A stretch of 39,176 nt of DNA, taken from the NCBI GenBank assembly GCA_034432955.1, contig DAOUBB010000023.1, forward strand, positions 1 through 39,176, given 5' to 3'. Shown here one piece after another: positions 128-35,810 of the stretch. Source of the DNA: Anaerolineae bacterium. Its GTDB lineage: Bacteria; Chloroflexota; Anaerolineae; DUEN01. The position numbers and the translations under genes are program-made. How positions within the stretch are numbered: the stretch's first letter is position 1; each line of letters opens with the position of its first letter. The notes under the pieces are model-generated. The model was not told where the DNA came from. It ran no database searches and worked only from the letters and a program-made list of their open reading frames with translations.

Positions 128-505
128 ATGACCCTAGACAAAGTTCTCGTCACCCTTGGCGGGCTGGCTGCCATTGGGTTCATCGTCTGGTTCTTCTGGC
201 TGGGCGAAAGGAAGGGCGTGCGGGCCACCCTGACCAGCAGCGGCTATCAAGAGGCGATGGTGCTGGTTAAGGGCGGCTACACACCGGACGTGATCCTCGT
301 CGAGCGCGGCAGGCCGGTGCGCCTGAACTTCGTCCGCGCGGAGTCCGCCTCGTGTTCGGAGATGGTGCTCTTCCCCGATTTCAGGAAGAGCGCCCAACTG
401 CCGGAAGGGGAGACCGTCCCCGTCGAGCTCATGCCCGACAGGGCCGGCGAGTTCGAGTTCCAGTGCCAGATGGGAATGCTGCGAGGAAAGCTGATCGTGG
501 AATGA
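128..505 (+). CDS. Cupredoxin-like small membrane-anchored copper-binding protein (PF13473-like).
   Basis: 125 aa with an N-terminal TM helix. It has a beta-rich C-terminal domain with SCSEM and FQCQMGM Cys/Met motifs. A GGAGG RBS lies 8 nt upstream of the ATG. Confidence 0.6.
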   Translation: MTLDKVLVTLGGLAAIGFIVWFFWLGERKGVRATLTSSGYQEAMVLVKGGYTPDVILVERGRPVRLNFVRAESASCSEMVLFPDFRKSAQLPEGETVPVELMPDRAGEFEFQCQMGMLRGKLIVE

Positions 506-599: not shown

Positions 600-623
600 G
601 GTGACCGGCCAGTGCCGGTCACC
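600..623. terminator. Perfect 10-bp inverted repeat GGTGACCGGC-CAGT-GCCGGTCACC between convergent genes. It is a candidate bidirectional intrinsic terminator; only a weak T-tract (TCCTTTA) follows on the + strand.
   Basis: Hairpin read directly from the sequence. It sits immediately 3' of the stop at 628-630 and 95 nt after the stop at 505. Confidence 0.5.
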
Positions 624-627
624 TCCT

Positions 628-1710
628 TTAGCGCCGGTAGCGCACCTCCACCGGCACGTAGTCCGTGTCATACCCGAAGTATCGCGGGCCCACCAGGGCC
701 AGGCCGGCCGGCGTGCGCCACTTCTCGTGGCACGGGATGCCCAGGATCACGACTCGAAAACCGTAGCGCAGGCTTTCCGTCGTGATGGGCTGGCCGGTCT
801 CGGCGTCCAGGACGGCGATCAGGTCGGGCACGGTGACGACGATCCGGCCGTCCACCGCCGCCACCAGATGCTCGTTCTGAAAATGGAGCTGCATGCGCTG
901 GCCAGCATATCCGTCCATCCCCTCGAAGGTGGCCTCCCCGCGCGCGAAGCCGGTCTCCGTCCGCCGCTGCACATCCGTGATCTTGCCGCGGAAAATCTCA
1001 AAACCGCCGGTGACCTCCTGCACAGCCGCGATCACGTCGCGGTTGGTGTGACGTGCCTCCCGGATGGTACGCCCGATGCGCTCCGCCAGCGTGATGGTGC
1101 CCGGCACGCTGCACTCCTTGAGCTGGCGACCGGTCGCCGCGTAGCAGGCGATGAGAGCGGTGCACCCCATGTCAATCGTGATGCTGCGGGCCAGCCTCTC
1201 TGTCCAGTGATTGTCAATGGTGTTCAGGATCGCGCTGTTCCCCTTCTCGTCCGCCATGGCAAACGGCGTGGCCGAGATGCCGTACAGCGTATGGGTCACC
1301 ATGGGAATCTCAGGAAAGGCGCGGCCCATGCCGTCGCAGTCCACCATCGGCAACCCCAGCCGGGCAGCCACCGTGATCGGGATGGTCGAGTTGAGCCCTC
1401 CCGCCTCGATGGACATGGTGGCGTGGATCTTCCTGCCGAGGTAGTCCTCCAGGGCCCGAAATGCCTTGATCGCCTCATCCCCCTGCGGCAGCTTCTCCAC
1501 CATGACGGTGGGAGCCCCCATCATGGCAGCGGGCACGATCAGATCGTCGTCGCCGATCTCATCCAGGGAAAGCAGGGTCACCGGGCCATACTTCTCGATG
1601 GCATGGATCGCCATGAGCTTGCCGATGTAGGGATCGCCCCCGCCGCCGGTGCCCAGCACGGCGGCTCCCAGGGCCAGGTCTTCCACGTTCTGAACGTCCA
1701 ACTTTCTCAT
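628..1710 (-). CDS. DUF917 (PF06032) family protein, paralog A.
   Basis: GTGGGGDPYIGKL N-terminal motif and strong co-linearity with the neighbouring paralog. Start chosen at MRKLD (ATG at 1710), preceded by AGGAGGAGG; the longer ORF upstream is read-through. Confidence 0.8.
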   Translation of the reverse strand: MRKLDVQNVEDLALGAAVLGTGGGGDPYIGKLMAIHAIEKYGPVTLLSLDEIGDDDLIVPAAMMGAPTVMVEKLPQGDEAIKAFRALEDYLGRKIHATMSIEAGGLNSTIPITVAARLGLPMVDCDGMGRAFPEIPMVTHTLYGISATPFAMADEKGNSAILNTIDNHWTERLARSITIDMGCTALIACYAATGRQLKECSVPGTITLAERIGRTIREARHTNRDVIAAVQEVTGGFEIFRGKITDVQRRTETGFARGEATFEGMDGYAGQRMQLHFQNEHLVAAVDGRIVVTVPDLIAVLDAETGQPITTESLRYGFRVVILGIPCHEKWRTPAGLALVGPRYFGYDTDYVPVEVRYRR

Positions 1711-1748
1711 AAAACGCCTCCTCCTGGGAAGGACAGCCCTCCGAGGTC

Positions 1749-2966
1749 TCAGATAATGCCTCCTCCCTTCCGCTTGGGCAAGGGATGATATTCCACCTGG
1801 TAACCGAACGCCTGGGGGCCGACCACCGCCAGCGCCTCCGGGGTGCGCAGCTTGTCCGAGCATGGGATGCTCAACACCGTCACGCGAAAGCCATAGCGCA
1901 GAAGCTCCGTGGTGATCGGCTCGCCACTGTCGTCATCCACGATGCAGATCAGGTCGGGGACGGTAGCCCGGACCTCACTGGATTGGGATGCCCCCTGTGC
2001 TGGGGTGCAGAGGTGCAGGGGTGATTCTCCCCCGCTCCTCTGCTCCCTTGCTCCTCCGCTCCCCTGCTCCCCTGCTCCCTGGCTCCCCTGCCGCACCCAG
2101 GCGATCAGGTTCTCGTTCTGAAACTCGATGAGCATCTCCTGGCCAGCGTACGAATCCATCCCGGCGATGGTGGCCGTGCCGCGGGCGAAGCCCCCCGTAG
2201 TGCGCCGGGCCACGTCGGTGAGCTTGCCGCGGAAGATCACCTGGCCGTCGCTCAGCTCCAGGATGCCCTGAATGGGATCCTGCCCCTGCCGCCGCGCGGC
2301 CCGCACTCGATCGCCGATCGCTTTGGCCAGGGAGAGGGTGTGCCACACGGCGGTGCGCTTCACCTGGGCGCCCGTCATCGGGGCCATGGCAAAGGTGGCC
2401 GTGCACCCCATCGCAATCGTGACCGAACGCGCCAGGCGTTCGAGCGTGCGGGCGTCCTGCGCCCGATCGAACAGGACCACGTTGCCCTTCTCATCGCACA
2501 GCACGGCCGGCGTGGGATCCACGCCGTAGATGAAGAACGAGGTCATGGGGATCTCGGGGAAGGCGCGCCCCATCCCGTCGGCGTCCACGACGGGCAGGCC
2601 GACCTGCGCGGCCGCGATCAGCGGGGCCACCGAGTTCCCTCCGCCGATCTCCACCGAGATCAGGGCGTCGGCTCGCCGGCCCAGAAACGCCTCGAGAGCT
2701 CGCAACGCGCGCACCTCCTCATCGCCCCGTTCGAGCTTCTCTACGCCCACCGTCGGGGCGCCAATGCCGCCTACGGTGATCACCAGCGCGTCGTCCGGCA
2801 GATCCTCAGGCGGGATGATGGAAACGCGGCGCCCCTCTTCCAGCAGGCAACGCGTGCGGAGCTTGCCCAGGTACGGATTGCCACCCCCTCCGGTGCCCAG
2901 GATCCCCGCCCCGATCGCAATGGACTCCAGGTCTTCAATGCTTAACATCCATGTCGGGCTTCTCAT
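1749..2966 (-). CDS. DUF917 family protein, paralog B, carrying a ~43-aa low-complexity insertion. Start may be 2966 or 2948.
   Basis: GTGGGGNPYLGKL motif; aligns along its length with paralog A. The insertion lies between FQNENLIAWV and TVPDL. GGAGG sits 4 nt before the ATG at 2966. Confidence 0.75.
   Translation of the reverse strand: MRSPTWMLSIEDLESIAIGAGILGTGGGGNPYLGKLRTRCLLEEGRRVSIIPPEDLPDDALVITVGGIGAPTVGVEKLERGDEEVRALRALEAFLGRRADALISVEIGGGNSVAPLIAAAQVGLPVVDADGMGRAFPEIPMTSFFIYGVDPTPAVLCDEKGNVVLFDRAQDARTLERLARSVTIAMGCTATFAMAPMTGAQVKRTAVWHTLSLAKAIGDRVRAARRQGQDPIQGILELSDGQVIFRGKLTDVARRTTGGFARGTATIAGMDSYAGQEMLIEFQNENLIAWVRQGSQGAGEQGSGGAREQRSGGESPLHLCTPAQGASQSSEVRATVPDLICIVDDDSGEPITTELLRYGFRVTVLSIPCSDKLRTPEALAVVGPQAFGYQVEYHPLPKRKGGGII
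2040..2100. repeat. Microsatellite-like tandem TGCTCCC / GCTCCCC(T) tract, about 6 units, inside DUF917-B. On the minus strand it encodes an (A)(G/R)EQ(G/R)SGG x2 repeat.
   Basis: Seen directly: ctgctcccttgctcctccgctcccctgctcccctgctccctggctcccc. The corresponding loop is absent from paralog A. Confidence 0.7.
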
Positions 2967-3057
2967 CCCCCCTCCACAGAGGAAGGCAAGTGCAGGAGCT
3001 GCAATAGGGTTTTCTGGAGGGGAAACCCCTCCAGGCCTCCTCCCTGCCCATTCCAGG

Positions 3058-4599
3058 TTATTCCAGTTGGAGATCGCCTACTGCCTTGACCCGGATGCGG
3101 GTGGCGTTGCTGGGCAGATAGGTGAGCGGTACCTCTTCGACGTCCACGATCTGGATGGTCTCTTTGGCCGCGCCGGCCGCCAGCGCCTTGGCAATCGCTT
3201 CTTCTTTGGCCTGGTGGAGCGCCTCTTCTCGCGACATGGTTGCCAGGGAGAAAATGCGATCGGTCTCCGCGCCGACCTGGGCGATGGCTGCGCCGATGGC
3301 GTTGGCCACCGCATAGTGCTCAGGTCGGATGATCTCGGAGGCGCCGGCTACCGGGCGTGAGACCAGGATGGTCCCCCCACCCACCAGGATCACCGGGATC
3401 GGCTCGGCGCTCGTCTTCATACGATCCACAGCGGCGTCCACCATTCGCTGCATCAGATCCAACGCCTCGCGCACGAAGCTGCCATCCAGGGAGCGCACCG
3501 CGCTGCGGTCGCCGATGTCCGCCAGTCCGCCCGCCACGGCGATGTCGGTGGCCGTCAGCACATCGCCACCGAAAACCCAGGCCTTCGTGGTCAACTCGTA
3601 GCCCACGCTTTGCGGGCCGATCTTGAGGGGATCGCGCGTCACCAGGCTGCCGCCGCCCAGGCCGAAGGAGTAGACGTCGGGCATGCGGAAGTTGGTGCGC
3701 ACGCCGCCGATCTCCACCGCCACCGAGGCCTCACGCGGGAAGCCGTGGATGAGCATCCCGACGTCGGAGGTCGTGCCGCCCAGGTCCACGACCATGGCCT
3801 CCTTCACCCCGGAGAGGAAGGCCGCGCCGCGCATGCTGTTGGTGGGCCCAGAGGCGAAGGTGAAGACGGGGTACTTCTCGGCGAACTCGGCGCTCATCAG
3901 GGTGCCGTCGTTCTGGCTCAGGTAGAACGGCGCCTGGATGCTCATCTCGGCCAGGGCCTGCCGGAAGGACGCGACGATGCGCCGGGCCAGGTCCCTCAGG
4001 CAGGCGTTCATGATCGCCGCGTTCTCCCGCTCTAGCAGCCCGATGCGGCCGATCTCATGGGAACGAGTGATGCTGGCATCGGGGATCTCGTCTTGCAGGA
4101 TCTCGGCGGCCCAGTTCTCGTCCTCTGGGTTCACCGGGGAGAAGACGCTGGAGACGGCGATCGCCCGGATACCCTTGTCTTTGATCTCTCGGGCCACCTG
4201 GCGCAGCTCTCGCTCATCCGGTTGGGAGATGCGCCGGCCGTCGAACTCGTGGCCGCCATGGACCAGATACCAGTGGTTGCCGATCGCCTCGCGCAGGTCA
4301 GGCGGCCAGTCCACCATGGGAGGCAGCCCAGCGGTGGCCGGCAGTCCCAGCCGCACCGCGGCCGTAGGCACCAAATGTTTGCGCTCGACCACGGCGTTGG
4401 TGAAATGAGTCGTCCCGATCATCACGGCGGTGATCGCTGCCGGGTCCACGCGCGTCCTGGCGAGCAGGTTTCTGAGAGCCGTCGTGATGCCCGTGCTGAC
4501 GTCCGGGGTGGTAGGCGTCTTCACCGCATCCACCACCGTCATGCCCTTCATGAGCACCGCGTCGGTATTGGTGCCGCCTACGTCTATGCCGATTCTCAT
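3058..4599 (-). CDS. Hydantoinase/oxoprolinase-family protein (HyuA-like ATPase; Hydant_A_N plus Hydantoinase_A folds).
   Basis: N-terminal MRIGIDVGGTNTDAV sugar-kinase/actin-fold motif, and a second glycine-rich DLGGTTSD motif. 513 aa. GGAGG RBS 5 nt upstream. Confidence 0.8.
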   Translation of the reverse strand: MRIGIDVGGTNTDAVLMKGMTVVDAVKTPTTPDVSTGITTALRNLLARTRVDPAAITAVMIGTTHFTNAVVERKHLVPTAAVRLGLPATAGLPPMVDWPPDLREAIGNHWYLVHGGHEFDGRRISQPDERELRQVAREIKDKGIRAIAVSSVFSPVNPEDENWAAEILQDEIPDASITRSHEIGRIGLLERENAAIMNACLRDLARRIVASFRQALAEMSIQAPFYLSQNDGTLMSAEFAEKYPVFTFASGPTNSMRGAAFLSGVKEAMVVDLGGTTSDVGMLIHGFPREASVAVEIGGVRTNFRMPDVYSFGLGGGSLVTRDPLKIGPQSVGYELTTKAWVFGGDVLTATDIAVAGGLADIGDRSAVRSLDGSFVREALDLMQRMVDAAVDRMKTSAEPIPVILVGGGTILVSRPVAGASEIIRPEHYAVANAIGAAIAQVGAETDRIFSLATMSREEALHQAKEEAIAKALAAGAAKETIQIVDVEEVPLTYLPSNATRIRVKAVGDLQLE

Positions 4600-4650
4600 C
4601 CCAGCCTCCTTGGTTTCAGCGATCAGCGATGAGCAGCCAGCGGCCAGCGA

Positions 4651-5649
4651 TCAGCGATTCGCTGAGGGTTGGCCGCTGACCGCTACCAGGTGACAGGCCA
4701 CGAGGTGGCCCTGGCCGATGTCCAGGAGAAGAGGCACGCGCTCCATGCAGGCGCGGACCTTCGGGGCCGGGCAGCGCGGCGCGAAGGGACAGCCTTGTAT
4801 CCGGCCGGCCAACGTGGAAATCTCCCCCTGCAAGACGATCTGCTCCCTCTGATGGTCCGGGTCAGGCTCCGGCATGGCCGACAGCAGGGCCTGCGTGTAC
4901 GGGTGCTGAGGGGCGTCGAAGATCTGATCCACGGTCCCCAGCTCCACGATGCGCCCCAGGTACATCAGGGCCACCCGGTCGCACATGTAGCGGATCACGC
5001 CCAGGTCATGCGAGATCACCAGATAGGTCAGGTTCAGGCGCTGTTGCAGATCCAACAACAGGTTGAGGATCTGCGCCTGAACGGAGACATCGAGGGCGGA
5101 GGTGGGCTCGTCCAGGATGATGAGCCTGGGCTGCAAGGCCAGCGCGCGGGCGATGCCGATGCGCTGGCGCTGGCCGCCGCTGAACTCGTGGGGATAGCGA
5201 TGCAGGTGGTCCTCGGTCAGACCGACCAGCCGCGCCAGCTCCCGCACGCGTGCTTCCAGCTCGGCCCCTCGCGCCAGGCGGTGGATGATGATCGGCTCGG
5301 CGATGATCTGCTTTACCTTCATGCGGGGGTTCAACGACGAGAAGGGGTCCTGGAAGACGATCTGCATGTGCGCGCGATAGCCGCGCATCTCCCGCTCGGA
5401 CAGCCTGAGCACATCCCGTCCCTCGAAGAGGACCTGGCCTGACGTGGGCTCGATGAGGCGGAGGATCAACTTGCCCAGGGTGGTCTTGCCCGATCCGGAT
5501 TCACCCACCAGCCCGAACGACTCTCCCGCGTAGATCTCCAGGTCCACGCCGTCTACGGCGCGAATGTCGTCTACATGGCGACGGAAGAGGCCGCCGCGCA
5601 CGGGGAAGTATTTGGTGAGCTGACGGACCTGCAAGAGAGGACCGCTCAT
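4651..5649 (-). CDS. oppF: Oligopeptide/dipeptide ABC transporter ATP-binding protein (OppF/DppF-like).
   Basis: Walker A GESGSGKTT, signature LSGGQRQR and Walker B ILDEPTSALD, plus the C-terminal oligopeptide-ABC extension. Start chosen at MSGPLLQV; this overlaps oppD by ~36 nt, and the alternative start is 5712. Confidence 0.8.
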   Translation of the reverse strand: MSGPLLQVRQLTKYFPVRGGLFRRHVDDIRAVDGVDLEIYAGESFGLVGESGSGKTTLGKLILRLIEPTSGQVLFEGRDVLRLSEREMRGYRAHMQIVFQDPFSSLNPRMKVKQIIAEPIIIHRLARGAELEARVRELARLVGLTEDHLHRYPHEFSGGQRQRIGIARALALQPRLIILDEPTSALDVSVQAQILNLLLDLQQRLNLTYLVISHDLGVIRYMCDRVALMYLGRIVELGTVDQIFDAPQHPYTQALLSAMPEPDPDHQREQIVLQGEISTLAGRIQGCPFAPRCPAPKVRACMERVPLLLDIGQGHLVACHLVAVSGQPSANR

Positions 5650-5683
5650 CGGCTGGAGCTCTCCATGCAACGCATCGTGTCTC

Positions 5684-6718
5684 TCACGTGTCGTATAGAT
5701 GGCACGCCACATGATGATCGTGCCCGATGGGCCGCATGGCGGGAGGCGGCTCCAGGGCGCATCGGGGCATGGCGTGAGGGCAGCGGGGATGGAAGCGACA
5801 TCCGGCCGGCGGATTCACCAAGCTGGGGATGGAGCCGGCGATCCCCTGCAATTCCCCTTTCCCCTTGCTGCGCGTCGGCACGGCCTGCAACAAGCCACGG
5901 GTGTACGGGTGACGCGGCTCTTTGAAGATGCTGCGCACCGGCCCCTGCTCCACTACCCGGCCGGCGTACATCACCGCCGCCTTGTTGCAAACCCTAGCGA
6001 CGACACCCAGGTTATGGGTGATCAGCAGCACCGTCAGGTCCAGCTCGCGCACCAGGTCCTGGATCAGCCGCAAGATCTGGGCCTGGATGGAGACGTCGAG
6101 CGCGGTCGTGGGCTCGTCAGCGATGAGCAGCTCGGGCCGGCCCACGATCGCCATCGCGATCAACACCCGCTGCTTCATCCCGCCGCTGAACTCGTGGGGA
6201 TAGCTGGAGATACGCTGCTCGGGATCAGGGATGCCCACCATGCGCAACGCCTCAATGGCCATGCGACGCGCCTCCCGCCGGCGTTGGCGGCTCGACGGGA
6301 GCCATTTGGCGAACGGGGCCATCGCCATCGTGGCGGGGGCCTCCGCTTTGCTGAGGATAGCGTCCACCATTTGCTCTTCGATGGTGAAGACCGGGTTCAG
6401 GTTGGTGGTCGGGTCCTGGAAGATCATGGCCATCCGGGTGGCCCGCAGCCTGCGCAACTCCCCGTTGCCCATGTCCAGCACGTTCCTGCCGTCGAACAGC
6501 ACCTCCCCTCGGGCGATCTCGCCCGGCGGGCAGGGGATCAGGTGGGGGATGCTCAGCGCCGTCATCGTCTTGCCGCACCCCGTCTCGCCCACCAGCCCCA
6601 GCACATCGCCGCGGCGCAGCTCGAGGTTCACGCCGGCCAGCGCCCGCACCACGCCGTCAAAGGTGTGAAAGTTGACATGCAGGTCTCGAATCGTCACCAG
6701 TACGTCGTTGGCCACCAT
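5684..6718 (-). CDS. oppD: Oligopeptide/dipeptide ABC transporter ATP-binding protein (OppD/DppD-like).
   Basis: GETGCGKT Walker A, FSGGMKQR signature, IADEPTTALD Walker B and a C-terminal Cys-rich tail. Confidence 0.85.
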   Translation of the reverse strand: MVANDVLVTIRDLHVNFHTFDGVVRALAGVNLELRRGDVLGLVGETGCGKTMTALSIPHLIPCPPGEIARGEVLFDGRNVLDMGNGELRRLRATRMAMIFQDPTTNLNPVFTIEEQMVDAILSKAEAPATMAMAPFAKWLPSSRQRRREARRMAIEALRMVGIPDPEQRISSYPHEFSGGMKQRVLIAMAIVGRPELLIADEPTTALDVSIQAQILRLIQDLVRELDLTVLLITHNLGVVARVCNKAAVMYAGRVVEQGPVRSIFKEPRHPYTRGLLQAVPTRSKGKGELQGIAGSIPSLVNPPAGCRFHPRCPHAMPRCALEPPPAMRPIGHDHHVACHLYDT

Positions 6719-6796
6719 CGCCCCATACGAACGAAAGACGGATGCCCAAACACGCTGCCGCCGTCGTCCTTGGTCCGTCGTCCCTTGTCCTGCGCC

Positions 6797-7720
6797 TCAG
6801 CGCCTCGAGCGCGGGTCCACGACATCGCGCAGCCCGTCGCCCAGCAAGTTGAAGCCGAACACGGTCAGGAACATGGCCAGCCCGGGGAAGGTGGAGTACC
6901 ACCAGTAGTGGGGCAGATAGCCGCGCCCTTTCGAGATCATGGCTCCCCACTCGGGCACCGGGGGCTGGGCTCCCACGCCGATGAATCCCAGGGCGGCCAG
7001 GCTCAGGATGGCGAAGCCGATATCCATCGAGGCCTTGACGATGATGGCTGGGATGATGTTGGGCAGGATGTGGCGGAAGATGATGCGCAGGTGGCTGGCT
7101 CCCATCGCCTGGGCGGCCTGCACGTAGTCATCTTCCCGCGCGGACATCACCTGGGCCTGGACCAGCCGCGCGTAGCCCGGCCACCAGGTAATGGACAGGG
7201 CCAGCATCGCGTTGGTCACCCCCGGCCCCAGCGCGGCGGTGATGCTGAGGGCCAGGAAGATGCCAGGGAACGTCAGCATGATGTCCGCCAGGCGCATGAT
7301 GAGCTCGCTGACCCATCCCCCCAGATAGCCGGCCAGCCCGCCCAGGGTCACCCCGATGCTGATGGCGACCACCAGGATGATGACCCCCACCTGAAATGAG
7401 ATGCGGGTGCCTATCACGGTGCGGGTGAAGATGTCGCGTCCGACCTCGTCGGTGCCGAAGGGGTGGCGGAGGCTGGGAGGCTGGAACCGCTCCTCGATGT
7501 GCAACGTCCCCGTGGCGTCCTCCGGGTAAGGCACCCACCAGGGGCCGGTCAGCGCGACCAGGAAGAGGAACAGGACGATCCCCAGCCCGACCATCGAGAG
7601 CGTGCTCTGCCGGAAGCGATAGAGCGCGCGCCGCCCGTCCTCGATCAGGCTCTCATTTTCGTGGCGCCAACGCTGCCACCATCTTCTCAGGTCAACCCGG
7701 AAAGCGATCGCCTCGTTCAT
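6797..7720 (-). CDS. oppC: Peptide ABC transporter permease (OppC/DppC-like).
   Basis: Multi-TM protein with the binding-protein-dependent permease EAA-like region and the typical OppC N-terminus. Confidence 0.85.
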   Translation of the reverse strand: MNEAIAFRVDLRRWWQRWRHENESLIEDGRRALYRFRQSTLSMVGLGIVLFLFLVALTGPWWVPYPEDATGTLHIEERFQPPSLRHPFGTDEVGRDIFTRTVIGTRISFQVGVIILVVAISIGVTLGGLAGYLGGWVSELIMRLADIMLTFPGIFLALSITAALGPGVTNAMLALSITWWPGYARLVQAQVMSAREDDYVQAAQAMGASHLRIIFRHILPNIIPAIIVKASMDIGFAILSLAALGFIGVGAQPPVPEWGAMISKGRGYLPHYWWYSTFPGLAMFLTVFGFNLLGDGLRDVVDPRSRR

Positions 7721-7724
7721 TGAT

Positions 7725-7766
7725 CGTGATCCGTAATCCGTAACCCGTGATCCGTTATCCGTAGCG
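7725..7766. repeat. Imperfect 21-bp tandem duplication (tCGTGATCCGTaATCCGTAac / cCGTGATCCGTtATCCGTAgc) with four ATCCGT cores. It spans the oppB stop and the oppB-oppC spacer.
   Basis: Seen directly. Unit 2 encodes the OppB C-terminus (..IRYG*). Unit 1 is a non-coding copy in the 34-nt spacer before the oppC ATG. Confidence 0.7.
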
Positions 7767-8777
7767 GATGCGCGGGTCCAGCACGCCGTACATCAGGTCG
7801 GTGGCCAGATTCACCAGCGTGAAGAGCAGCCCCACAAACAGGGTGATCCCCATGATCGGCTGGAAGTCCAGGCTGAGGGCCGAGTTCATCGAATACAACC
7901 CCAGCCCTGGCCAGTTGAAGACCGTCTCCACCATGACGGAGCCGCCCAGCAGAAACCCGAACAGGAAGCCCAACATGGACACCGTGGCGATCAAGCCGTT
8001 TTTGAGCACATACTTGAACAGGATGATGCGCTCGGGGATCCCGTTCGCCCGCGCCATCCGCACGAAGTCCTTCTGCAGGACCTCCAGGATGTCGGCTCGC
8101 AGCAGGCGCATGATCAAGGCCAGGGCGATGAGCGACTGGGTCAGCGCCGGCAGGAAGATGTACTTCAGGGCAACAGCGAAACTCTTCAGATCGCCGAGCA
8201 GCAGCGTGTCGAGCAGCAGCAGCCGGGTGATCTCTTTGGGATAGGGAAGCCGTGGGTCGAACCGGCCACTGATGGGCAGCACGCGCAGCCACTGGCCCAG
8301 GATCAACTGGAGCATGATCGCCAACCAGAAGAGGGGCATGCTGATGCCAGAGAGGGCAACGACCCGGCTCACCTGATCCGGCCAGCGATCGCGATAGACC
8401 GCGGCCAGGATAGCGGCCGGGATGCCGATCACCACGGCAAAGGCCATCGAGACCAGCACCAATTCCAGCGTAGCGGGGAAGTAGTTAATGAGGTCGTCCC
8501 GCACCAGGTGGTGGTTGAGCATGGAGCGGCCCAGGTTGCCCTGAAAGAGCCCCTTCATGTAGTTCAGGTACTGGATGACCAGGGGCTTGTCCAGCCCGAA
8601 CTCTTCGGTGAGCCGCTGGATCTCCTCCGGTTTCGCCTGGGGGCCTGCCGCCAGCTTCACCGGATCCCCCGGCACCACGTGAGAGACCACAAAAGTGACG
8701 ACGGAAAGCCCGAAGAGAACAGGGATGATCAAAAGCAACCGCCGAATGACATAATAACGAAGTTGCATGCCTTGCAT
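7755..8777 (-). CDS. oppB: Peptide ABC transporter permease (OppB/DppB-like). Start uncertain among 8777, 8768 and 8807.
   Basis: The N-terminal YVIRRLLLIIPVLFGLSVVTFV motif is diagnostic of OppB/DppB, and the protein is multi-TM. Confidence 0.85.
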   Translation of the reverse strand: MQGMQLRYYVIRRLLLIIPVLFGLSVVTFVVSHVVPGDPVKLAAGPQAKPEEIQRLTEEFGLDKPLVIQYLNYMKGLFQGNLGRSMLNHHLVRDDLINYFPATLELVLVSMAFAVVIGIPAAILAAVYRDRWPDQVSRVVALSGISMPLFWLAIMLQLILGQWLRVLPISGRFDPRLPYPKEITRLLLLDTLLLGDLKSFAVALKYIFLPALTQSLIALALIMRLLRADILEVLQKDFVRMARANGIPERIILFKYVLKNGLIATVSMLGFLFGFLLGGSVMVETVFNWPGLGLYSMNSALSLDFQPIMGITLFVGLLFTLVNLATDLMYGVLDPRIRYG

Positions 8778-8789
8778 TCCTGACACGGG

Positions 8790-9096
8790 TCCTTGGGGGT
8801 TTGACAAGCGGCTTCGTCGCCTGCCACCCCCCCAAAACCCTCAAGGGCGAATATCCCTTTCGCCACGCCTAGCAGGGGAGGTCTGGAGGGGGCGAACTCC
8901 CCTCCGGAAAGACTTTTTGAAGCCTGTTCACCTGCCCGGTGGGGACCTGAAGGGGTCTTTTGAGGCCCCAACCAGGCAGGCAAGAGGCTTAAAAAGGCCA
9001 TTCTGTGGAGGGGATCTCCTCTCTACACCACCCCCGCAGGGGCACCCGTCCGTCCCTGAAGCCCAATTCGGGGGAGGGGCTGAGGGCAGGGGCAAA
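8790..9096 (-). promoter_or_regulatory. ~300-bp hairpin-rich intercistronic region between the binding-protein gene and oppB. Likely mRNA-stabilising or attenuating stem-loops.
   Basis: Inverted repeats read from the sequence, for example GGAGGGG-gcgaact-CCCCTCC and GGGGTC-ttttga-GGCCCC. No credible ORF is present. Confidence 0.5.
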
Positions 9097-10827
9097 TCAG
9101 TCTTCAATCCAGAGCCGCCAGAAGTCCACACTGATGTCGCCGAAGTACTTGAAGCCTTTCACTCGCTTATTGTAGGCCACCAGGTTCGGCAACACATAGA
9201 TGGGGATGCCGGGGATGTCCTCCATGATCATGCGCTGCAGCTCTTTCAGGATGCGCGCCCGCTCCTCTTCATCCACAGTGCGGCGCACCTGTTCGATCAA
9301 GCTATCCACCTCAGGGTTCTTATAGAAGTCGCACGACTGGAAGCTGCCGCCGGTGGGCCGATCCCAGGTGGGGGAATACCACTGCTCGCGGAACCACACG
9401 TCGGGCAGCGGCCCACTGTCCACGAAGATCATGGAGATGTCGGGGCCCGTCTCCGGCTTCCCACAGGCAGCCACCATATCCGGCCACACTTTAGGGATCA
9501 TGTTGAGCTTGATGTTGAACTTGGACAACTGGTCCAGCAAGATGAGGCCGGCCTGCTCCTCGAAGGTCAACCCCGTGACATAGACGAAATTGAGCTCGAT
9601 GCCGCCATCTTTGTACGGGGTCTGGTTCAGGGCCTCGCGGGCCTTCTCCAGATCGTACCGGTACACCGGCTGCACGTTGGGGTCGTGATAGGCGATGCCG
9701 TCCGGGATGGGGCCGACCAGGAGCTTGCCCAGCCCCCCCAGCGACTGAATGTAGCCCTCGTAGTCGAAGGCATACGCCAGGAACCGCCGGAAGTTGACGT
9801 CGGCCGTGGGACCTTTCTGGTTGTTCAGCTTGAAATAGCCGGCCAGCGTGCCGTAGTTGACCTCGCAGACGTACCCCGGCGTGTTGTTGATGAGCTCCAC
9901 GTCTTCGGTGCCGATGGTGTCGGCGAAGTCCACTTCGCCGGCCAGAAGGGCGATCCGCCGCTGCGGCGTATCCCGGATAATCCGCCAGGTGAACCCGGCC
10001 AACCGCCCCCGGCCTGGCCAGCCCTGCCAGTAGTCCGGCACAGCCTCGAGCGAGTAATGGTCCCCGATCTGCCATTCTTTGATGACGAACGGCCCAGAGC
10101 CGGCCTCATGCTCGATCAACCATTTCTCGCCCTCATCCCCGCCTACTTCATGATCCTTGACCACCTTGGGGTTCATGATCCACTGCTCCTGATACGCGAG
10201 CAGGCGGGGGAAATCGCCATACGGCTCGTTCAAAACCATCCGGACCGTGTAGTCATCCACCACTTCAATGTTCTTTTCCTCCAGCAGGCCTAGCAGGAGG
10301 TTCGAGCGCTGTCGTTGAAAGCGCAGGGTGCGGCCGTAGGAGTACTTCACCGCCTCAGCGGTCACAGGGGTTCCGTCGTGAAAGACCGCCTTGTTCGTCA
10401 GATGGAAGACCCACTCGCGGGCGTCATCGGATCCCTCCCAGCGCTCGCACAGGCAGGGCTCGATCGGCCGCGGGAACCCACCCTCAAAGCGGAAGAGGCG
10501 GTCGTAGAGCTGCCTCCCCACCGCGCCGATGGAGTAGTCCGTGCGGTCCGAGGGGTCCAGGGTAGGGACGTCCTGGCCGCCGCTGTAGATCAACCACTGG
10601 GGTTCGATGGCCGCTGGGGCCTCTGGCTTAGGCGTGGCAGTCGCGGCTTCCGGCGTGGCCGGCGCAGCGGGTGTGGCTGGGGCAGGGGCGGGAGCGCAGG
10701 CGGAAGCGATCGCCTGGAGTCCGACCAGCCCCGCCACGGCTGCTACGCCTTGCAGAAACTCGCGGCGGCTGATACTCCCCTGACGATACTGCTCCCAAAG
10801 TGTGTCAAGACTGCGGGATGCCATAGT
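9097..10827 (-). CDS. ABC transporter substrate-binding protein, family 5 (peptide/nickel), with a Tat signal.
   Basis: SRREFLQGVAAVAG twin-arginine motif, an Ala/Pro-rich linker and an SBP_bac_5-like body (~570 aa). GAGGAGGAG RBS before ATG at 10827 (MASRS..). Confidence 0.85.
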   Translation of the reverse strand, partial: TMASRSLDTLWEQYRQGSISRREFLQGVAAVAGLVGLQAIASACAPAPAPATPAAPATPEAATATPKPEAPAAIEPQWLIYSGGQDVPTLDPSDRTDYSIGAVGRQLYDRLFRFEGGFPRPIEPCLCERWEGSDDAREWVFHLTNKAVFHDGTPVTAEAVKYSYGRTLRFQRQRSNLLLGLLEEKNIEVVDDYTVRMVLNEPYGDFPRLLAYQEQWIMNPKVVKDHEVGGDEGEKWLIEHEAGSGPFVIKEWQIGDHYSLEAVPDYWQGWPGRGRLAGFTWRIIRDTPQRRIALLAGEVDFADTIGTEDVELINNTPGYVCEVNYGTLAGYFKLNNQKGPTADVNFRRFLAYAFDYEGYIQSLGGLGKLLVGPIPDGIAYHDPNVQPVYRYDLEKAREALNQTPYKDGGIELNFVYVTGLTFEEQAGLILLDQLSKFNIKLNMIPKVWPDMVAACGKPETGPDISMIFVDSGPLPDVWFREQWYSPTWDRPTGGSFQSCDFYKNPEVDSLIEQVRRTVDEEERARILKELQRMIMEDIPGIPIYVLPNLVAYNKRVKGFKYFGDISVDFWRLWIED

Positions 10828-11115
10828 TCTCCTCCTCGATGGTTTGAAAGGGCGGTAAACAGAGGGGGTGAAACCGTTGAACGAAAGCATGGCATGGAAA
10901 CAAAAAAGGTGCTTAGCTCGGACCGCCCATGTCCGAAATCCGCTCTCACAGGGTAGACACCCCGCTCAGGGTCACGATCATAGAGCACGTCCTGAGGCGG
11001 ATGAAGCACCTTTGCTACTACAAATTGTAGCAGGAAACAGCCCCTTGTCAAGAGCCGTCCGTGACACGGCACTCGCCCGTTGACTGGATGAGCGCCGCCC
11101 GTTGAGCAACCGGAA

Positions 11116-11144
11116 TTGACATCTCTCCCCGTTTCGTGTACCCT
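11116..11144 (+). promoter_or_regulatory. Sigma70-like promoter TTGACA-17-TACCCT for the GH-A hydrolase gene.
   Basis: Exact TTGACA at 11116-11121 with a 17-nt spacer and TACCCT at 11139-11144. This places the predicted transcription start downstream of the GTG at 11136, which argues against the longer ORF-track start. Confidence 0.5.
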
Positions 11145-11207
11145 GATGTTGCCTCAGGTCCAGGGCGAAAGAGGTTTTGCGTCTGTCAGTATGGAAAGGA
11201 ACCTAGA

Positions 11208-12509
11208 TTGAGCGAACAGAAATCTACCAGGGCGTTGACTCGCGGGCGAATGATCCTCAGCCTGACGTTCAGCGCTGTGTTGCTGGTGACCACCAGCCTG
11301 TGGATTAGCCGCGCCCTCGTGGAGGATCCAGGCGCCGGCAAGATCCCGGTGAATGGACAGAGCCCTGGCGCCCGACGGCCTTACACGCCGACGCGCTCCG
11401 CCACAGCCCTCGCGGCCAACCAGGGCCATACGGCGTTCCTGCCGGCGATTCTCAGCAACCCGCCGTCGGCCAGTGGCCTGTCCCTCACCTCGACACCCAC
11501 ATCGCCTCCGCGGCGAACGCCGCGGCCCACCCGTAAGCCCACCCCCACACCGGAGCCGCTCAACCTACGGACGGACCTCCCGGCGCTAAGCCTGCGCGAT
11601 TGGCCGCGCCCGGCCGGCGACAACGGCCGTTGTATGCACTTTCTGCCCGTGGCCTATTACGAAGGGGTGGACCTGGACCTCCAGATCGGCCGCCTGAAAG
11701 AGCTGGGGGTGAAATGGGCGCTGGTGATCTACGGCGATGAGATCCAGCTTGAGCGGCTGGCCCCGCGCTTTCGCGACGCCGGCATCATGGTGGTCTGGCG
11801 CAAAGGGCTGCGCGCCAACGAGCGTTACTTCGGCTGGGGACGCGACGTCGAGCTGTTACAGCGCCTGGGCCTGCCCCCCTACATGCAGCTTTACAACGAG
11901 CCATCCCTCTCGGCGGAATGGGGCAAAGGGGAGCCCGATTTCGATGACTTCCGCGAGAACATCCTGCAGGCTGCGCGTGACGTCTACAACGCTGGCGGAT
12001 ATGTCGGCCTGCAATTCGTGTCGGATGAGTGGCTGCGGCTGACCCTGCGGGCGATCAAAGAGCGCAGAGGCGAGGCCATCTTCGGGCGCATGTTCTTCAT
12101 CCCGCATCCCTACGGGCTAAACCACCCTCCAAACTACACGGAAGATCCCAATGGGGTGTTGGGCTTTCGGCACTTCGCCCAGATCCTGCAGGAGGAGATC
12201 GGCTTCGTCCCGCCGATGATCGCCGGCGAGGGCGGGTGGAAATTCAACGCCTCAGACGATCACCGGTTCCCGCGAATTGACGACGCCCTCCATCGCGATT
12301 ACCATATAGAGGTGTTTAACTGGTTCCGCACCGGCAAGCTCTCGGATGGCACGGACCTGCCCGACTATCTGTTCGCCTTTTGCCCGTGGCTGCTCTCCGC
12401 CAAGCTGGACGACAGCGCCTGGTACGATTCCTTTGCCGGCCCGCGCACAGCCACCATCGAGGCAGTCAAGGCCATCCCGCCGTTTGTGCGGCGCTTCTCC
12501 TGGGATTAG
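11208..12509 (+). CDS. Membrane-anchored clan GH-A (GH5-like) glycoside hydrolase with a Pro/Thr-rich linker. Start is TTG 11208 or ATG 11250.
   Basis: N-terminal signal-anchor (ILSLTFSAVLLVTTSLWI), a PT-rich linker (TSTPTSPPRRTPRPTRKPTPTPEP), and a catalytic domain with an NEP acid/base motif (LYNEPS) and a later GEGGW candidate nucleophile. Confidence 0.6.
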   Translation: MSEQKSTRALTRGRMILSLTFSAVLLVTTSLWISRALVEDPGAGKIPVNGQSPGARRPYTPTRSATALAANQGHTAFLPAILSNPPSASGLSLTSTPTSPPRRTPRPTRKPTPTPEPLNLRTDLPALSLRDWPRPAGDNGRCMHFLPVAYYEGVDLDLQIGRLKELGVKWALVIYGDEIQLERLAPRFRDAGIMVVWRKGLRANERYFGWGRDVELLQRLGLPPYMQLYNEPSLSAEWGKGEPDFDDFRENILQAARDVYNAGGYVGLQFVSDEWLRLTLRAIKERRGEAIFGRMFFIPHPYGLNHPPNYTEDPNGVLGFRHFAQILQEEIGFVPPMIAGEGGWKFNASDDHRFPRIDDALHRDYHIEVFNWFRTGKLSDGTDLPDYLFAFCPWLLSAKLDDSAWYDSFAGPRTATIEAVKAIPPFVRRFSWD

Positions 12510-21660: not shown

Positions 21661-22740
21661 TCAGTAGCGCAGGAGGGCCCCGATGTGCCCTGCTCGCTGC
21701 AAGGCTTCACTCCCGCCCACGATCGTGACATCCAGCCCCTGCTGGATCGCGTGATGGATCAGATGGTCCACGGCATCGGGCAGGTAGGCCATATCACCAC
21801 CACAGAAGGAGCATCGCTCGACTGGCTCGACGGTCATATAGCCGCACCCCCGGCAGAGATAGGCCGGAGCACGGTACCCCTGTTCGACGACAAGGCGGCG
21901 CAACCGGCCTTCATGAAGCGCCCCGAGCGTGTCGGCCAATCCGATCACCGCAGCCCTTCCCTTGGCCGCAGTGGTGATCATATCGTTCACCAGCGCGGAT
22001 TCGCTCTGAGCTAAATAGGTCTGCACCACCTCCAGCGCCCGCTCGTTCACCTCAGCCGGCGAAGCGTCTTTATCCACGCTGATGCGGCCGATCACCCGTT
22101 CACGCAGCGCTGACGGGAGCAGCTCTTCAAACAGGGCCACATTGGTCTCCGTTCCGCCCAGGATCAGGCGATCGCATTTGTGTTGCCGGCAGAAGGCCTC
22201 GGTCAGCTCGGCTGCCTCGCGCAGGTTGCGCTGAGCCGTCACGTCCTCGTGCCGCTGGTAACGCTGTGCCGCCCAACCGCCGGCCCGATGGCGCTTCACA
22301 TCCTCGCCCGAGATCTCGGTGGCCTCTTGCAATGCCCCCATGTAGAAGACGAAAAGACGGGCTCCCCCACGGTTGACGAGCGCGACCGCGTATCGCTCCA
22401 TGATGTCGGTCAACGGCTTGACGTAGGGCCGATCGCCCACAAAAGCCAGATCCTCGCGGGGGAGCAGGAGAGGGAACGCTCGCCAGAAGCCCGCGGCCTC
22501 ACAACTGAAGCAGGCTACGGCCCTTCCCTGCCAGTTATATTCCAGGTCAATATAGCGTTCCACTCGTGCCAGATCCCGCGAATCCGCCTGAGCGGATACG
22601 CTTTCCAGCAGCCGGCGCAAAGCCAGCTTGTACTTCTCGCGCGTTCGTCGGTGCGGATCTACATTCAGATAGAGACTTAAGACGGAAGCCCCATCTACCC
22701 GAAAGTTGACCAATTCCTGAATCGCCCGTTCGTCAATCAT
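21661..22740 (-). CDS. Full-length eRF1/aRF1/Pelota-superfamily protein (bacterial eRF1-like, baeRF-type) with the catalytic loop reading GGW instead of GGQ, and a C-terminal CxxC...CxxC zinc ribbon.
   Basis: KRHRAGGWAAQRYQRH aligns to eRF1 KKHGRGGQSALRFARL. The C-terminal ...AGHIGALLRY aligns to eRF1 ...FGGIGGILRY. Start at MIDER (ATG 22740) with a GAGGAGG RBS; the longer ORF to 23058 is read-through across the intergenic repeat. Confidence 0.65.
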   Translation of the reverse strand: MIDERAIQELVNFRVDGASVLSLYLNVDPHRRTREKYKLALRRLLESVSAQADSRDLARVERYIDLEYNWQGRAVACFSCEAAGFWRAFPLLLPREDLAFVGDRPYVKPLTDIMERYAVALVNRGGARLFVFYMGALQEATEISGEDVKRHRAGGWAAQRYQRHEDVTAQRNLREAAELTEAFCRQHKCDRLILGGTETNVALFEELLPSALRERVIGRISVDKDASPAEVNERALEVVQTYLAQSESALVNDMITTAAKGRAAVIGLADTLGALHEGRLRRLVVEQGYRAPAYLCRGCGYMTVEPVERCSFCGGDMAYLPDAVDHLIHHAIQQGLDVTIVGGSEALQRAGHIGALLRY

Positions 22741-22935
22741 GCTACCTCCTCGTTCAAACGGCGCCGAAATGAGTGCCAGGATGCGGGGACCCGGCGCTTG
22801 AGGCTTACAGTTCGGCAGTGTAGGCGGCAGACACACGACCAGGGCAACAGGATCAAAATCGGCTGATGGGCAGTGCGGCCAGGCTCCGCTACCGTTACCT
22901 GGCGACTGGAAGTCACGGCAACGCCTGCCAAGCCT

Positions 22936-23036
22936 GCCTCCGCAGGCTAAATCCAGTTGCCGTAGGGCGACTTCGCTGACGTTGCCCGCAGTTTCTAACG
23001 GCTGGGCCTCCAGCAACACCCAAGGGGGAGACCACC
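22936..23036 (+). repeat. Copy 2 of the ~101-bp direct repeat, intergenic between rluA (stop 23089) and the eRF1-like gene (start 22740). It is antisense to both genes.
   Basis: 99/101 identical to 1-101. A GCCTGC-ctcc-GCAGGC hairpin at 22932-22947 overlaps its 5' end. Confidence 0.9.
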
Positions 23037-23088
23037 GATCCATGAGACACCCTGCCAATAGGCGTATACGACGCCCGATCCAAGCTTG

Positions 23089-28706: not shown

Positions 28707-28834
28707 GGTTGCCTCTCCGCCCTCTACCGGTAAGGGCATACGGATACACCGGACAGGGATCTGACGCGTGAGAGATCATAGCACAAATGTGCTGACTCGA
28801 CAAGTGCGGCAGGCCGGGATTCACAGCACCGCCT

Positions 28835-28928: not shown

Positions 28929-29414
28929 ATGACCCAGCTTACCCATTTGGACGAGCAGGGACGGGCTCGCATGGTGGACGTGGGAGCCAAACCCGATACG
29001 GAGCGCGAAGCGATCGCACGCGGCGAGGTGCGTATGCGTCCTGAAACGCTGCGTCTGATTCGTGAGGGCGATCTCCCCAAGGGCGATGTCCTGGGGACGG
29101 CGCGGGTCGCCGGCATCATGGCAGCCAAGCGCACCTCCGAGCTTATCCCTCTCTGCCACCCGCTCCTGCTCACGTACATCGGCGTGGATTTCACGTTGGA
29201 CGAAGAGATCGGCCGGGTGGTGATCACCGCGACCGTGCGCTGCCGCGGCCAGACCGGCGTCGAAATGGAGGCGCTCACGGCCGTCAGCATCGCCGCGCTC
29301 ACGATATATGACATGGCCAAGGCGGTGGAACGGGGCATGGTCATCGGCGAGATCCGGCTGGTGGAGAAACGTGGCGGCCAAAGTGGAGAGTGGAGATCGG
29401 AGCATGAAGATTGA
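28929..29414 (+). CDS. moaC: Cyclic pyranopterin monophosphate synthase MoaC.
   Basis: MoaC hallmark blocks ([36 protein letters not shown]). 161 aa. Confidence 0.9.
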
Positions 29415-34751: not shown

Positions 34752-34766
34752 CGTTGCTCTCCACGG

Positions 34767-35732: not shown

Positions 35733-35810
35733 GAGCCAGCCTCCAACAGAGTTTGCCTGGACAGGCCTGGCCCATCCAGGCAGAGAAGCCGGCCAGCTCA
35801 GCGGCGACTA

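Follow-up and report, generated by a model that had tools for sequence, protein, structure and literature searches.

An eight-gene Chloroflexota operon couples a peptide-type importer to a short HyuA-like ATPase and two DUF917 proteins: a candidate ATP-dependent cyclic-amide-opening module

The 39,176-nucleotide stretch of DNA analysed here (the window; contig DAOUBB010000023.1, positions 1 to 39,176 of the forward strand, GenBank assembly GCA_034432955.1 of an Anaerolineae bacterium) carries an eight-gene operon that encodes a peptide-type ATP-binding cassette (ABC) importer, a short hydantoinase-A-like ATPase of 513 residues, here termed HyuAs, and two paralogs of the DUF917 family, DUF917-A and DUF917-B. 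HyuAs and DUF917 are encoded as a pair in bacteria and archaea, and they are joined in one fused chain in fungi, amoebae, a starfish and abalone. We consider it reasonably likely that HyuAs and DUF917 form one ATP-using enzyme that opens cyclic amides and is fed by the importer. The HyuAs–DUF917 module is widespread and, in the searchable literature, experimentally uncharacterised. The window copy is an ordinary, minimal member of it, and its value is that of a clean example, consisting of importer and enzyme only. The eight genes, listed from the head of the operon to its end, are:

9097..10824, minus strand: family-5 binding protein, 575 aa (Pfam SBP_bac_5, 5.7e-68)
7755..8768, minus strand: ABC permease of the OppB/DppB type, 337 aa (Pfam BPD_transp_1_N and BPD_transp_1; public gene call)
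6797..7720, minus strand: ABC permease of the OppC/DppC type, 307 aa (Pfam OppC_N and BPD_transp_1)
5684..6718, minus strand: ABC ATPase of the OppD/DppD type, 344 aa (Pfam ABC_tran and oligo_HPY)
4651..5649, minus strand: ABC ATPase of the OppF/DppF type, 332 aa (Pfam ABC_tran and oligo_HPY)
3058..4599, minus strand: HyuAs, 513 aa (Pfam Hydant_A_N, 1.1e-43, and Hydantoinase_A, 2e-29)
1749..2966, minus strand: DUF917-B, 405 aa (Pfam S-Me-THD_N, 8.6e-61, and S-Me-THD_C, 1.3e-67)
628..1710, minus strand: DUF917-A, 360 aa (Pfam S-Me-THD_N, 8e-62, and S-Me-THD_C, 3e-77)

The initial annotation, made from the letters of the window and its open reading frames (ORFs), had placed the middle gene in the hydantoinase family, and Pfam bears this out: HyuAs scores 149 bits against Hydant_A_N (cut-off 25) and 103 bits against Hydantoinase_A (cut-off 23), the latter match spanning profile positions 1-171 of 291. 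Residues 2-361 align with N-methylhydantoinase (7hk5, E 4e-28) and caprolactamase alpha (6yra), so that HyuAs is not an unrelated protein of the sugar-kinase fold; it also aligns with subunits of acetophenone and acetone carboxylases. In the alignment, D6 and D272 of HyuAs correspond to D11 and D295 of CapA, and the CapA mutants D11A and D295A are inactive (PMC8453981). D6, D272 and the DxGGT, DxGGT and GGG motifs of the acetate and sugar kinase/Hsc70/actin (ASKHA) fold are invariant in 23 HyuAs homologues; judged from these residues, the ATP site is conserved and intact. Hundreds of HyuAs homologue clusters are ~75% identical. HyuAs is ~180 residues shorter than canonical alpha subunits (513 versus ~690 aa), has no long C-terminal region, and reaches no NCBIfam equivalog (CapA, 107 bits versus a cut-off of 1000; ApcC, 76 versus 1500). 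A search for a HyuB-like partner, advised in the initial annotation, gave no Hydantoinase_B (PF02538) match among the eight operon proteins and 20 other ORFs of the window. Compared with the HyuA+HyuB enzymes, the operon thus has the alpha-subunit domains and the ATP-site aspartates, but neither HyuB nor a full-length alpha subunit.

The strongest evidence for a single HyuAs–DUF917 enzyme comes from single-chain fusions. Searched by phmmer with HyuAs, a set of 1.84 billion cluster representatives contains 1268 matches (50%-identity clusters) at E 1e-30 or better, a total that includes more distant members of the hydantoinase-A superfamily. Among the best 150 of these, 57 are at least 830 aa long (~1000 aa), and HyuAs matches their N-terminal half. 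All nine long forms that were scanned combine Hydant_A_N, Hydantoinase_A, S-Me-THD_N and S-Me-THD_C in one chain. Ten representatives were looked up and eight of them are named; all eight are eukaryotic long forms, and six are Pfam-confirmed fusions. The eukaryotic long forms come from Acanthaster planci, Haliotis, Anaeramoeba, Pelomyxa, Willaertia, Lentinula, Ancoracysta and an MMETSP protist. Genes that are adjacent in prokaryotes and fused in eukaryotes are best read as encoding one enzyme. Two module proteins are longer still: P0475 (2715 aa) and P0418 (1451 aa), the latter from Pelomyxa and with ~535 extra N-terminal residues.

The pairing was followed across genomes with a DUF917-A scan that took one genome per GTDB species and yielded 80 loci, mostly from Chloroflexota with some from Deinococcota, Pseudomonadota and Actinomycetota; each was probed by tblastn with the eight window proteins. 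An orthologue of HyuAs (at least 50% identity) lies beside the DUF917-A orthologue in 76 of the 80 loci, and the remaining four are cut at most 1.6 kb from the anchor. The DUF917-A orthologue directly adjoins HyuAs in most genomes. In 57 of 74 cases the next DUF917 gene starts no more than 32 nt after the HyuAs stop codon, and often the two are 1-2 nt apart or overlap. One HyuAs accompanies one to six DUF917 paralogs in related genomes (1, 2, 3, 4, 5 and 6 DUF917 genes in 7, 22, 16, 23, 11 and 1 loci, respectively). Where the upstream flank reaches 9 kb or more, 48 of 56 loci contain Opp-type transporter genes, and such genes stand beside HyuAs/DUF917 not just in Chloroflexota and Deinococcota but in haloarchaea and rhizobia as well. 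This operon arrangement is far beyond chance. The gene-neighbourhood statistics advised by the initial annotation thus reveal a HyuAs–DUF917 pairing that is near-obligate within this clade and usually comes with a transporter.

Clustering of the DUF917 copies distinguishes two layouts. In Phototrophicaceae and Aggregatilineales the order is SBP-B-C-D-F-DUF917c-HyuAs-DUF917a(1-4 copies)-DUF917b, SBP denoting the substrate-binding protein; the second layout, that of the window, is HyuAs-(DUF917 g/h/j)-DUF917d, and the gene order in the window is HyuAs, DUF917-B, DUF917-A. All-against-all clustering of every locus ORF found no further family in more than 28 of the 80 loci, and the lack of a third conserved enzyme family suggests that the product feeds general metabolism. 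Downstream sulfatase, FG-GAP and FAD oxidoreductase genes, confined to at most 28 of the 80 loci and all of the Phototrophicaceae type, and methylase-HNH, RhuM, PIN, pentapeptide-repeat, SH3 and PMP-repeat genes inside the clusters were dismissed as substrate clues and judged to be insertions or local synteny. Selfish or unrelated genes, among them N6/N4 methylase-HNH, RhuM and PIN toxin genes, lie between an upstream DUF917 and HyuAs and between DUF917 copies in Phototrophicaceae-type clusters (L047 4424-8444, L031 7213-8226, L024 14183-14587 and similar loci). A canonical HyuA (~680 aa, 25-31% identical to HyuAs) occurs within a few kb in loci L015, L033, L040, L041, L048 and L051, and in Ketogulonicigenium (L094 1914-5610) a canonical HyuA followed by an annotated HyuB lies near HyuAs/DUF917.

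Among plasmid records, DUF917-A has 140 matches and HyuAs 127, largely in the same genera, and the two genes are adjacent in 12 of the 12 records with coordinates in both match tables. Plasmid pHV3 of Haloferax volcanii carries genes for a binding protein, two permeases, two ATPases, DUF917, HyuA, two further DUF917 proteins and an Lrp regulator, and pMLa of Mesorhizobium a Dpp-type ABC, HyuA and DUF917. Rhizobium combines a nitroreductase, an Asp/Glu racemase, another ABC type, HyuA, two DUF917 genes and LuxR; Geobacillus has a sigma-54 regulator, two DUF917-HyuA pairs and a 'cytosine permease', and Listeria monocytogenes and Lactiplantibacillus plantarum have a PucR regulator, a cytosine permease, DUF917 and HyuA. 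Similar arrangements are found in Arsenophonus and Ketogulonicigenium. Permease, DUF917 and hydantoinase genes are moreover consecutive and co-regulated in Clostridioides difficile (PMC12915319) and are listed as co-present in Lactobacillus rhamnosus in a published table. In neither the locus nor the plasmid sample do DUF917 homologues typically go without hydantoinase or transporter partners. The co-occurrence of DUF917 with hydantoinase-like genes, asserted in the initial annotation for the family as a whole, holds for this clade but does not extend to more distant DUF917 proteins (at most 33% identity), which occur without a HyuA-like neighbour in Sulfitobacter, Salinigranum and Parabacteroides. 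The stand-alone gene is accompanied by an ABC system and a cupin in Sulfitobacter, and by a Dpp-type ABC, DUF1177, AroM, an aminopeptidase, a racemase and an AstE-like deacylase in Salinigranum. A sub-module of DUF917, DUF1177 and AroM that has no HyuA-like gene of its own was also noted (L083 13400-17869; L096 5875-9508); its hosts are a bacterial metagenome-assembled genome (MAG) and a Salinigranum plasmid, where it follows a Dpp-type ABC importer, and its companions are CN_hydrolase, or aminopeptidase, racemase and AstE-like deacylase.

That the operon encodes two DUF917 paralogs, as initially proposed, is borne out by Pfam: DUF917-A scores 208 bits against S-Me-THD_N (PF06032, formerly DUF917) and 259 against S-Me-THD_C (PF20906), and DUF917-B 205 and 227 bits, respectively (cut-off 27). 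The paralogs are 46% identical to each other and share the two-domain fold of the family member CV_3147 (PDB 2o3i). This fold is unique, being unrelated to HyuB or to anything else solved. The family is no longer as poorly characterised as first stated, since it is now named after (S-methyl)thiohydantoin desulfurases; the window copies themselves stay below the cut-offs for those enzymes. Against NF058529 and NF058532 (cut-offs 440 and 450), DUF917-A scores 103 and 117 bits and DUF917-B 81 and 83. An identity as thiohydantoin or S-methyl thiohydantoin desulfurase was therefore rejected, and both proteins are regarded as family members, but not as those enzymes.

In an alignment of HyuAs-linked and stand-alone DUF917 members from bacteria and archaea, the GGGG loop, E102, G104-G105, G129-R130-A131-P133, R175, N279-E280 and P295 are invariant, and D124, D126 and D296 nearly so. 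DUF917-A and DUF917-B both keep every one of these residues; consequently, neither looks like a dead copy, and both appear catalytically competent. The acidic cluster and two arginines, with neither His nor Cys conserved, would be compatible with a site that depends on Mg/Mn or handles phosphate. At the same loci, orthologues of DUF917-A are 63-78% identical and those of DUF917-B 47-57%. DUF917-A and HyuAs diverge slowly (63-82% identity) and DUF917-B about twice as fast, which suggests that DUF917-A and HyuAs form the core and that DUF917-B is an accessory or specificity subunit. A 705-aa DUF917-DUF917 protein (P0246) was considered as evidence for a hetero-dimer and set aside as weak, being a single instance with an N-terminally incomplete first copy; another protein, P0010 (544 aa), comprises one and a half DUF917 copies. 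The paralogs differ in one conspicuous feature:

1980..2096, minus strand: low-complexity insertion of ~38 aa (QGSQGAGEQGSGGAREQRSGGESPLHLCTPAQGASQ...) in DUF917-B, relative to DUF917-A

The 'large disordered insertion' of the initial annotation thus exists as 38 extra low-complexity residues in one paralog, but we interpret it instead as a hypervariable tandem-repeat loop. Much of it is encoded by an imperfect 8/24-nt tandem repeat (2027-2091), and by homology to the DUF917-A model it would sit in a β-hairpin loop of the C-terminal domain. Relatives of DUF917-B that are 83-93% identical have ~30, ~30, ~10 and 0 extra residues in this loop, and such variation among close relatives marks it as a fast-evolving product of repeat slippage. 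The insertion is unlikely to matter to the mechanism. It is identical in an independent assembly (L002) and ungapped in a 95%-identical MAG (L003), and is therefore genuine and no product of assembly. In MAG contig CAYRQQ010000027.1 a 100-N scaffold gap covers the repeat and the 3' part of DUF917-B (L001 12529-12627, equivalent to window ~1702-2072); because of this gap DUF917-B is unannotated in that record and a 201-aa antisense ORF is called instead.

The catabolic reading of the initial annotation is supported by these results. What the sequences show is the gene content, the operon structure, the conserved ATP site, the absence of HyuB, the pairing and fusion of HyuAs with DUF917 and the unique DUF917 fold; ATP-driven ring opening, the roles of the subunits and the substrate are inferred. 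We propose that the module works as follows. A lipid-anchored binding protein, exported by the twin-arginine translocation (TAT) pathway, and a Dpp/Opp-type ABC system would take up a small peptide-like nitrogen compound. The three remaining genes would supply a two-component enzyme in which HyuAs is the ATP-binding ASKHA module and DUF917 occupies the place of HyuB in the classical enzymes. HyuAs would activate the cyclic-amide carbonyl with ATP to a phospho-lactim, and a DUF917 subunit would hydrolyse the activated C=N-X centre, so that the ring opens; the resulting linear dipeptide, or N-acyl/N-carbamoyl amino acid, would be finished by housekeeping enzymes. DUF917-A may act as the conserved core partner of HyuAs, and DUF917-B as a second catalytic or specificity subunit. 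In caprolactamase, HyuA binds ATP, and an activated (phospho- or carboxy-) lactim has been proposed to tunnel to HyuB and to be hydrolysed there; CapAB needs ATP because hydrolysis of the stable lactam is thermodynamically unfavourable (PMC8453981). If the name S-methyl thiohydantoin desulfurase is read as hydrolysis of an S-methyl-isothiourea, that reaction would formally be the same chemistry as proposed here, and exchanging X = SH/SCH3, which the named desulfurases, by their names, would remove from a five-membered cyclic ureide, for phosphate would give the intermediate of a HyuA-type kinase.

Several points weigh against this proposal. The searchable literature contains no biochemical data on any HyuAs–DUF917 pair. 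The existence of HyuA-less DUF917 clades implies that DUF917 inherently needs no activating partner. Genes for cyclodipeptide oxidase (CDO), racemase and peptidase, the indicators of diketopiperazines, are absent from the window cluster. The structure model of HyuAs is poor (pLDDT 64) and as such supports no statement on a tunnel or interface. Finally, the transporter class of the module differs by taxon (Dpp-type ABC, another ABC type or NCS1) and its binding proteins in other phyla are only ~30% identical, and hence there is probably no single substrate.

The stand-alone clades also lend themselves to a different explanation, namely that DUF917 is a self-sufficient hydrolase, as the thiohydantoin desulfurases would be, and HyuAs either an ATP-dependent accessory, that is, a reactivase or chaperone like GlmL/MutL or EutA, or a kinase acting in a separate step on the substrate or product. 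A factor shared between paralogs would fit the ratio of one HyuAs to as many as six DUF917 proteins, and HyuAs weakly matches the MutL/GlmL and BcrAD/BadFG activator profiles. These matches, however, lie far under their cut-offs, whereas those to Hydant_A_N and Hydantoinase_A are strong. In addition, the covalent 1:1 fusion found in many lineages of eukaryotes fits co-catalytic subunits better than a repair factor, and pairing within the clade is near-obligate; we regard an accessory HyuAs as unlikely. An ATP-dependent carboxylase, ligase/cyclase or amide-forming enzyme in place of a ring-opening hydrolase seems decidedly improbable. Carboxylases do occur in the HyuA superfamily, HyuAs matches acetophenone carboxylase gamma/alpha and acetone carboxylase beta, and caprolactamase requires bicarbonate (PMC8453981), but among solved structures HyuAs is closest to the hydrolases N-methylhydantoinase and caprolactamase and not to carboxylases, the named DUF917 enzymes are desulfurases, which we take as hydrolytic from their names, and in most genomes the genes lie downstream of an importer served by a high-affinity binding protein or of an NCS1 permease, which is a catabolic setting for small, nitrogen-rich molecules.

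We give very little credence to the notion that an ordinary dipeptide, glutathione, nickel or opine importer merely adjoins three unrelated genes. Although the binding protein reaches no equivalog cut-off, has generic best matches (GsiB, NikA, HbpA) and belongs to a transporter type that varies between taxa, Opp-type genes adjoin HyuAs/DUF917 across phyla in most loci with enough flank, the window genes share one strand with mostly short gaps, and where the ABC system is absent another importer replaces it in the same operon. One catabolic operon is the best explanation of the eight-gene region.

As to what the proposed HyuAs–DUF917 enzyme would open, we rank 2,5-diketopiperazines first, followed by 5-substituted hydantoin-like rings and then other lactams, and the family probably covers several substrates. 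A peptide-like ring, for instance a 2,5-diketopiperazine, is hinted at by the Dpp-type importer. The window contains no carbamoylase or dedicated downstream enzyme, the M20-type carbamoylase family not having been specifically searched for, and this absence likewise counts for a peptide-like ring; a single CN_hydrolase query found a tblastn match in one of the 80 species loci (L013). With queries from L083 and L086, tblastn detected a CDO-like pair (PF00881 and PF19585) in 17 loci, of which 13 belong to the set of 80 species, and some of the CDO-like pair, Asp/Glu racemase, AroM and aminopeptidase genes occur in 13 of the 80 loci, in the duplicate or extra loci L083-L086, in Rhizobium and in Salinigranum. 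In L083 (13400-14338) and L086 (6208-7052) the CDO pair, a nitroreductase (PF00881) and DUF6092 (PF19585), is embedded among the HyuAs/DUF917 genes. Diketopiperazines form spontaneously from peptides, act as signals and are not cleaved by ordinary peptidases, and bacterial cleavage observed in a 2013 study was not assigned to an enzyme (PMC3852281).

Other observations favour a hydantoin- or nucleobase-like ring. Firmicutes loci carry NCS1 'cytosine permeases' and PucR regulators and not an ABC importer, CN_hydrolase is found in one lineage and an M20 hydrolase in Ketogulonicigenium; by analogy, the action of named DUF917 enzymes on thiohydantoins would also hint at a hydantoin-like ring. A diketopiperazine as substrate of the window enzyme, though ranked first, is less likely than not. 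Similarly speculative is the broader view that HyuAs–DUF917 represents a novel type of ATP-dependent cyclic-amide hydrolase, with a unique fold in place of HyuB, which acts on 2,5-diketopiperazines in the ABC-linked bacterial and archaeal clusters and would account for the bacterial cleavage of these rings. The DUF917 paralogs would then be side-chain or stereo-specificity subunits sharing one ATPase, and in fungi, protists and marine invertebrates the fused chain would have this function. If HyuAs–DUF917 works as proposed, the module would offer a candidate enzyme for degrading diketopiperazines and comparably stable rings. Its genetically tractable hosts are Haloferax volcanii (on pHV3), Listeria monocytogenes, Lactiplantibacillus plantarum and Clostridioides difficile.

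The family-5 peptide-type importer recognised in the initial annotation at the head of the operon is complete, with all diagnostic domains (SBP_bac_5, OppC_N, BPD_transp_1_N and oligo_HPY) of a five-component PepT-family set. The N-terminus of the binding protein (MASRSLDTLWEQYRQGSISRREFLQGVAAVAGLVGLQAIASAC) contains a twin-arginine motif, SRREFL, and a lipobox, IASAC; the protein is predicted to be TAT-exported and lipid-anchored. No importer component attains the cut-off of any substrate-specific NCBIfam model. The binding protein scores best against GsiB (129 bits versus a cut-off of 594), gives 65 bits against DppA (cut-off 1005), and reaches none of the equivalogs DppA, OppA, GsiB, NikA and CntA; the top match of the OppD-type ATPase is OppD, under its cut-off, and the OppF-type ATPase scores 374 bits against a dipeptide ATPase subfamily (cut-off 408). 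The nearest solved relatives of the binding protein are generic cluster-C proteins (5u4o, HbpA, YliB/GsiB, AapF and AgaA), and with these and the low identity between phyla the attempt to derive the substrate from the binding protein was given up.

The ORF listing together with Pfam shows eight intact ORFs, all on the minus strand, from 628 to 10824, and the region is confirmed as a genuine single eight-gene operon of a Chloroflexota genome. The G+C content of the window is ~64%, and its proteins have their nearest relatives in records labelled Anaerolineae or Chloroflexota; HyuAs is encoded identically on one contig of MAG GCA_964426405.1 and in the Logan assembly of SRR11582147. Intergenic spacing is mostly 34-91 nt, the exception being 328 nt between the binding-protein gene and oppB. 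All genes first described exist, with domains as then assigned, but the following starts had to be revised. DUF917-A starts at ATG 1710, with AGGAGGAGG just ahead; a 411-aa ORF (start 1863) was rejected, as it overlaps DUF917-B and its first 58 residues have no profile match. The binding protein starts at ATG 10824 with the Shine-Dalgarno site AGGAGGAG, and on account of this site the longer ORF of 597 aa was dropped. The limits of oppB (7755-8768) and oppF (4651-5649) were set by public gene calls and the onset of profile matches. Flanking and intergenic features are:

11024..11051, minus strand: candidate operon promoter TTGACA-16 nt-TACAAT with TG extension, sigma-70-like, 11 of 12 consensus positions
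8882..8908, no strand assigned: 11-bp GC-rich palindromic hairpin within the 328 nt that separate the binding-protein gene from oppB
600..623, minus strand: perfect 10-bp GC-rich hairpin GGTGACCGGC-ACTG-GCCGGTCACC, read directly from the sequence
128-505, plus strand: cupredoxin gene, convergent with the operon

The TTGACA/TACAAT site lies ~200 nt upstream of the binding-protein start and is suggestive only as operon promoter, the scan having found three such sites in 11.4 kb versus 1.6 expected. The ~190-nt leader has a folding energy no better than shuffled sequence (z = 0.5), and the window has no Rfam match, so that a riboswitch or leader RNA was discarded as a reading; a long-range stem, AAAGGUGCUU...AAGCACCUUU, followed by UUUUGUUU, gives the stretch 10903-11013 (minus strand) an attenuator-like appearance. 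The hairpin at 8882..8908, for which the terminator-like call itself is on the plus strand, may give the binding protein higher expression. The hairpin at 600..623 follows the DUF917-A stop codon by 4 nt and precedes the convergent cupredoxin gene; it likely marks the end of the operon, and the terminator scan does not list it because it has no U-tract. Facing the promoter region is a divergent ORF of 457 aa (11136-12509, plus strand; 419 aa in the public call) that has no Pfam match and is not conserved beside the module at other loci.

Elsewhere in the window, a baeRF_family10 (release-factor-like) gene (21661-23058, minus strand) lies directly downstream of a gene for a 1661-aa Lhr-type helicase (23754-28739, minus strand), and one ORF at 29308-30138 (plus strand) with ThiS/MoaD-like and MoaE domains resembles a fused molybdopterin synthase. 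A sugar-type ABC importer (SBP_bac_1 and two permeases) stands beside a GH127 beta-L-arabinofuranosidase (33894-37302 and 37424-39157, minus strand); at 34001-36000, coinciding with the permease genes of this importer, G+C falls to 0.53-0.58 and AT skew is +0.20 to +0.25.

Among known systems, the window importer shares its five components and their domains with the Dpp/Opp/Gsi/Nik importers of the PepT family, but stays below their substrate-specific cut-offs. CapAB, N-methylhydantoinase and the 5-oxoprolinases OplAB/OPLAH have the ASKHA ATP-binding core of HyuAs and both ATP-site aspartates, and the proposed logic, ATP activation of a stable cyclic amide followed by hydrolysis in a second subunit, would be common to both. 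By this analogy the operon resembles the HyuA/HyuB amidohydrolases and departs from them in HyuB and subunit length: the window system has an alpha-like subunit of 513 instead of ~690 aa, no HyuB and a DUF917 partner. For the CDO side, a section of a preprint reports CDO surroundings enriched in DUF917, hydantoin-racemase-like, AroM and dipeptide ABC genes, including in Chloroflexota; in that section a HyuA-like partner is not discussed and DUF917 is treated as a putative hydantoinase without data (bioRxiv 10.1101/2023.09.25.559410). Such non-CDPS (cyclodipeptide synthase) CDO clusters meet the present module where the PF00881 and PF19585 pair adjoins HyuAs/DUF917, in 13 of 80 loci, whereas the window operon has no CDO pair, racemase or AroM.

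The thiohydantoin desulfurases (NF058529, NF058532) belong to the same two-domain family and fold as DUF917-A and DUF917-B, with the GGGG/E/DxD/GRA/NE residues kept. They act in bacterial ergothioneine catabolism and are not known to need ATP, whereas the DUF917 clade of the window, scoring below the equivalog cut-offs, invariably has a HyuA-like ATPase as partner gene or fusion partner. Classical hyu clusters consist of an NCS1 permease (Mhp1-type), a hydantoin racemase, a hydantoinase and an N-carbamoylase, and in the agropinic-acid (aga) operon of Ti plasmids HyuA/HyuB-like lactamases accompany an importer with a family-5 binding protein. Both have the architecture proposed for the present operon, a dedicated importer followed by a cyclic-amide-opening enzyme; an NCS1 permease also replaces the ABC system in Firmicutes versions of the module, and the solved relatives of the binding protein include AgaA. 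In contrast to hyu and aga, the proposed hydrolytic component in the window is DUF917 and not a dihydropyrimidinase-type hydantoinase or HyuB. If the mechanism proposed here is true, the class of ATP-dependent amidohydrolases would gain a second, structurally unrelated hydrolytic partner.

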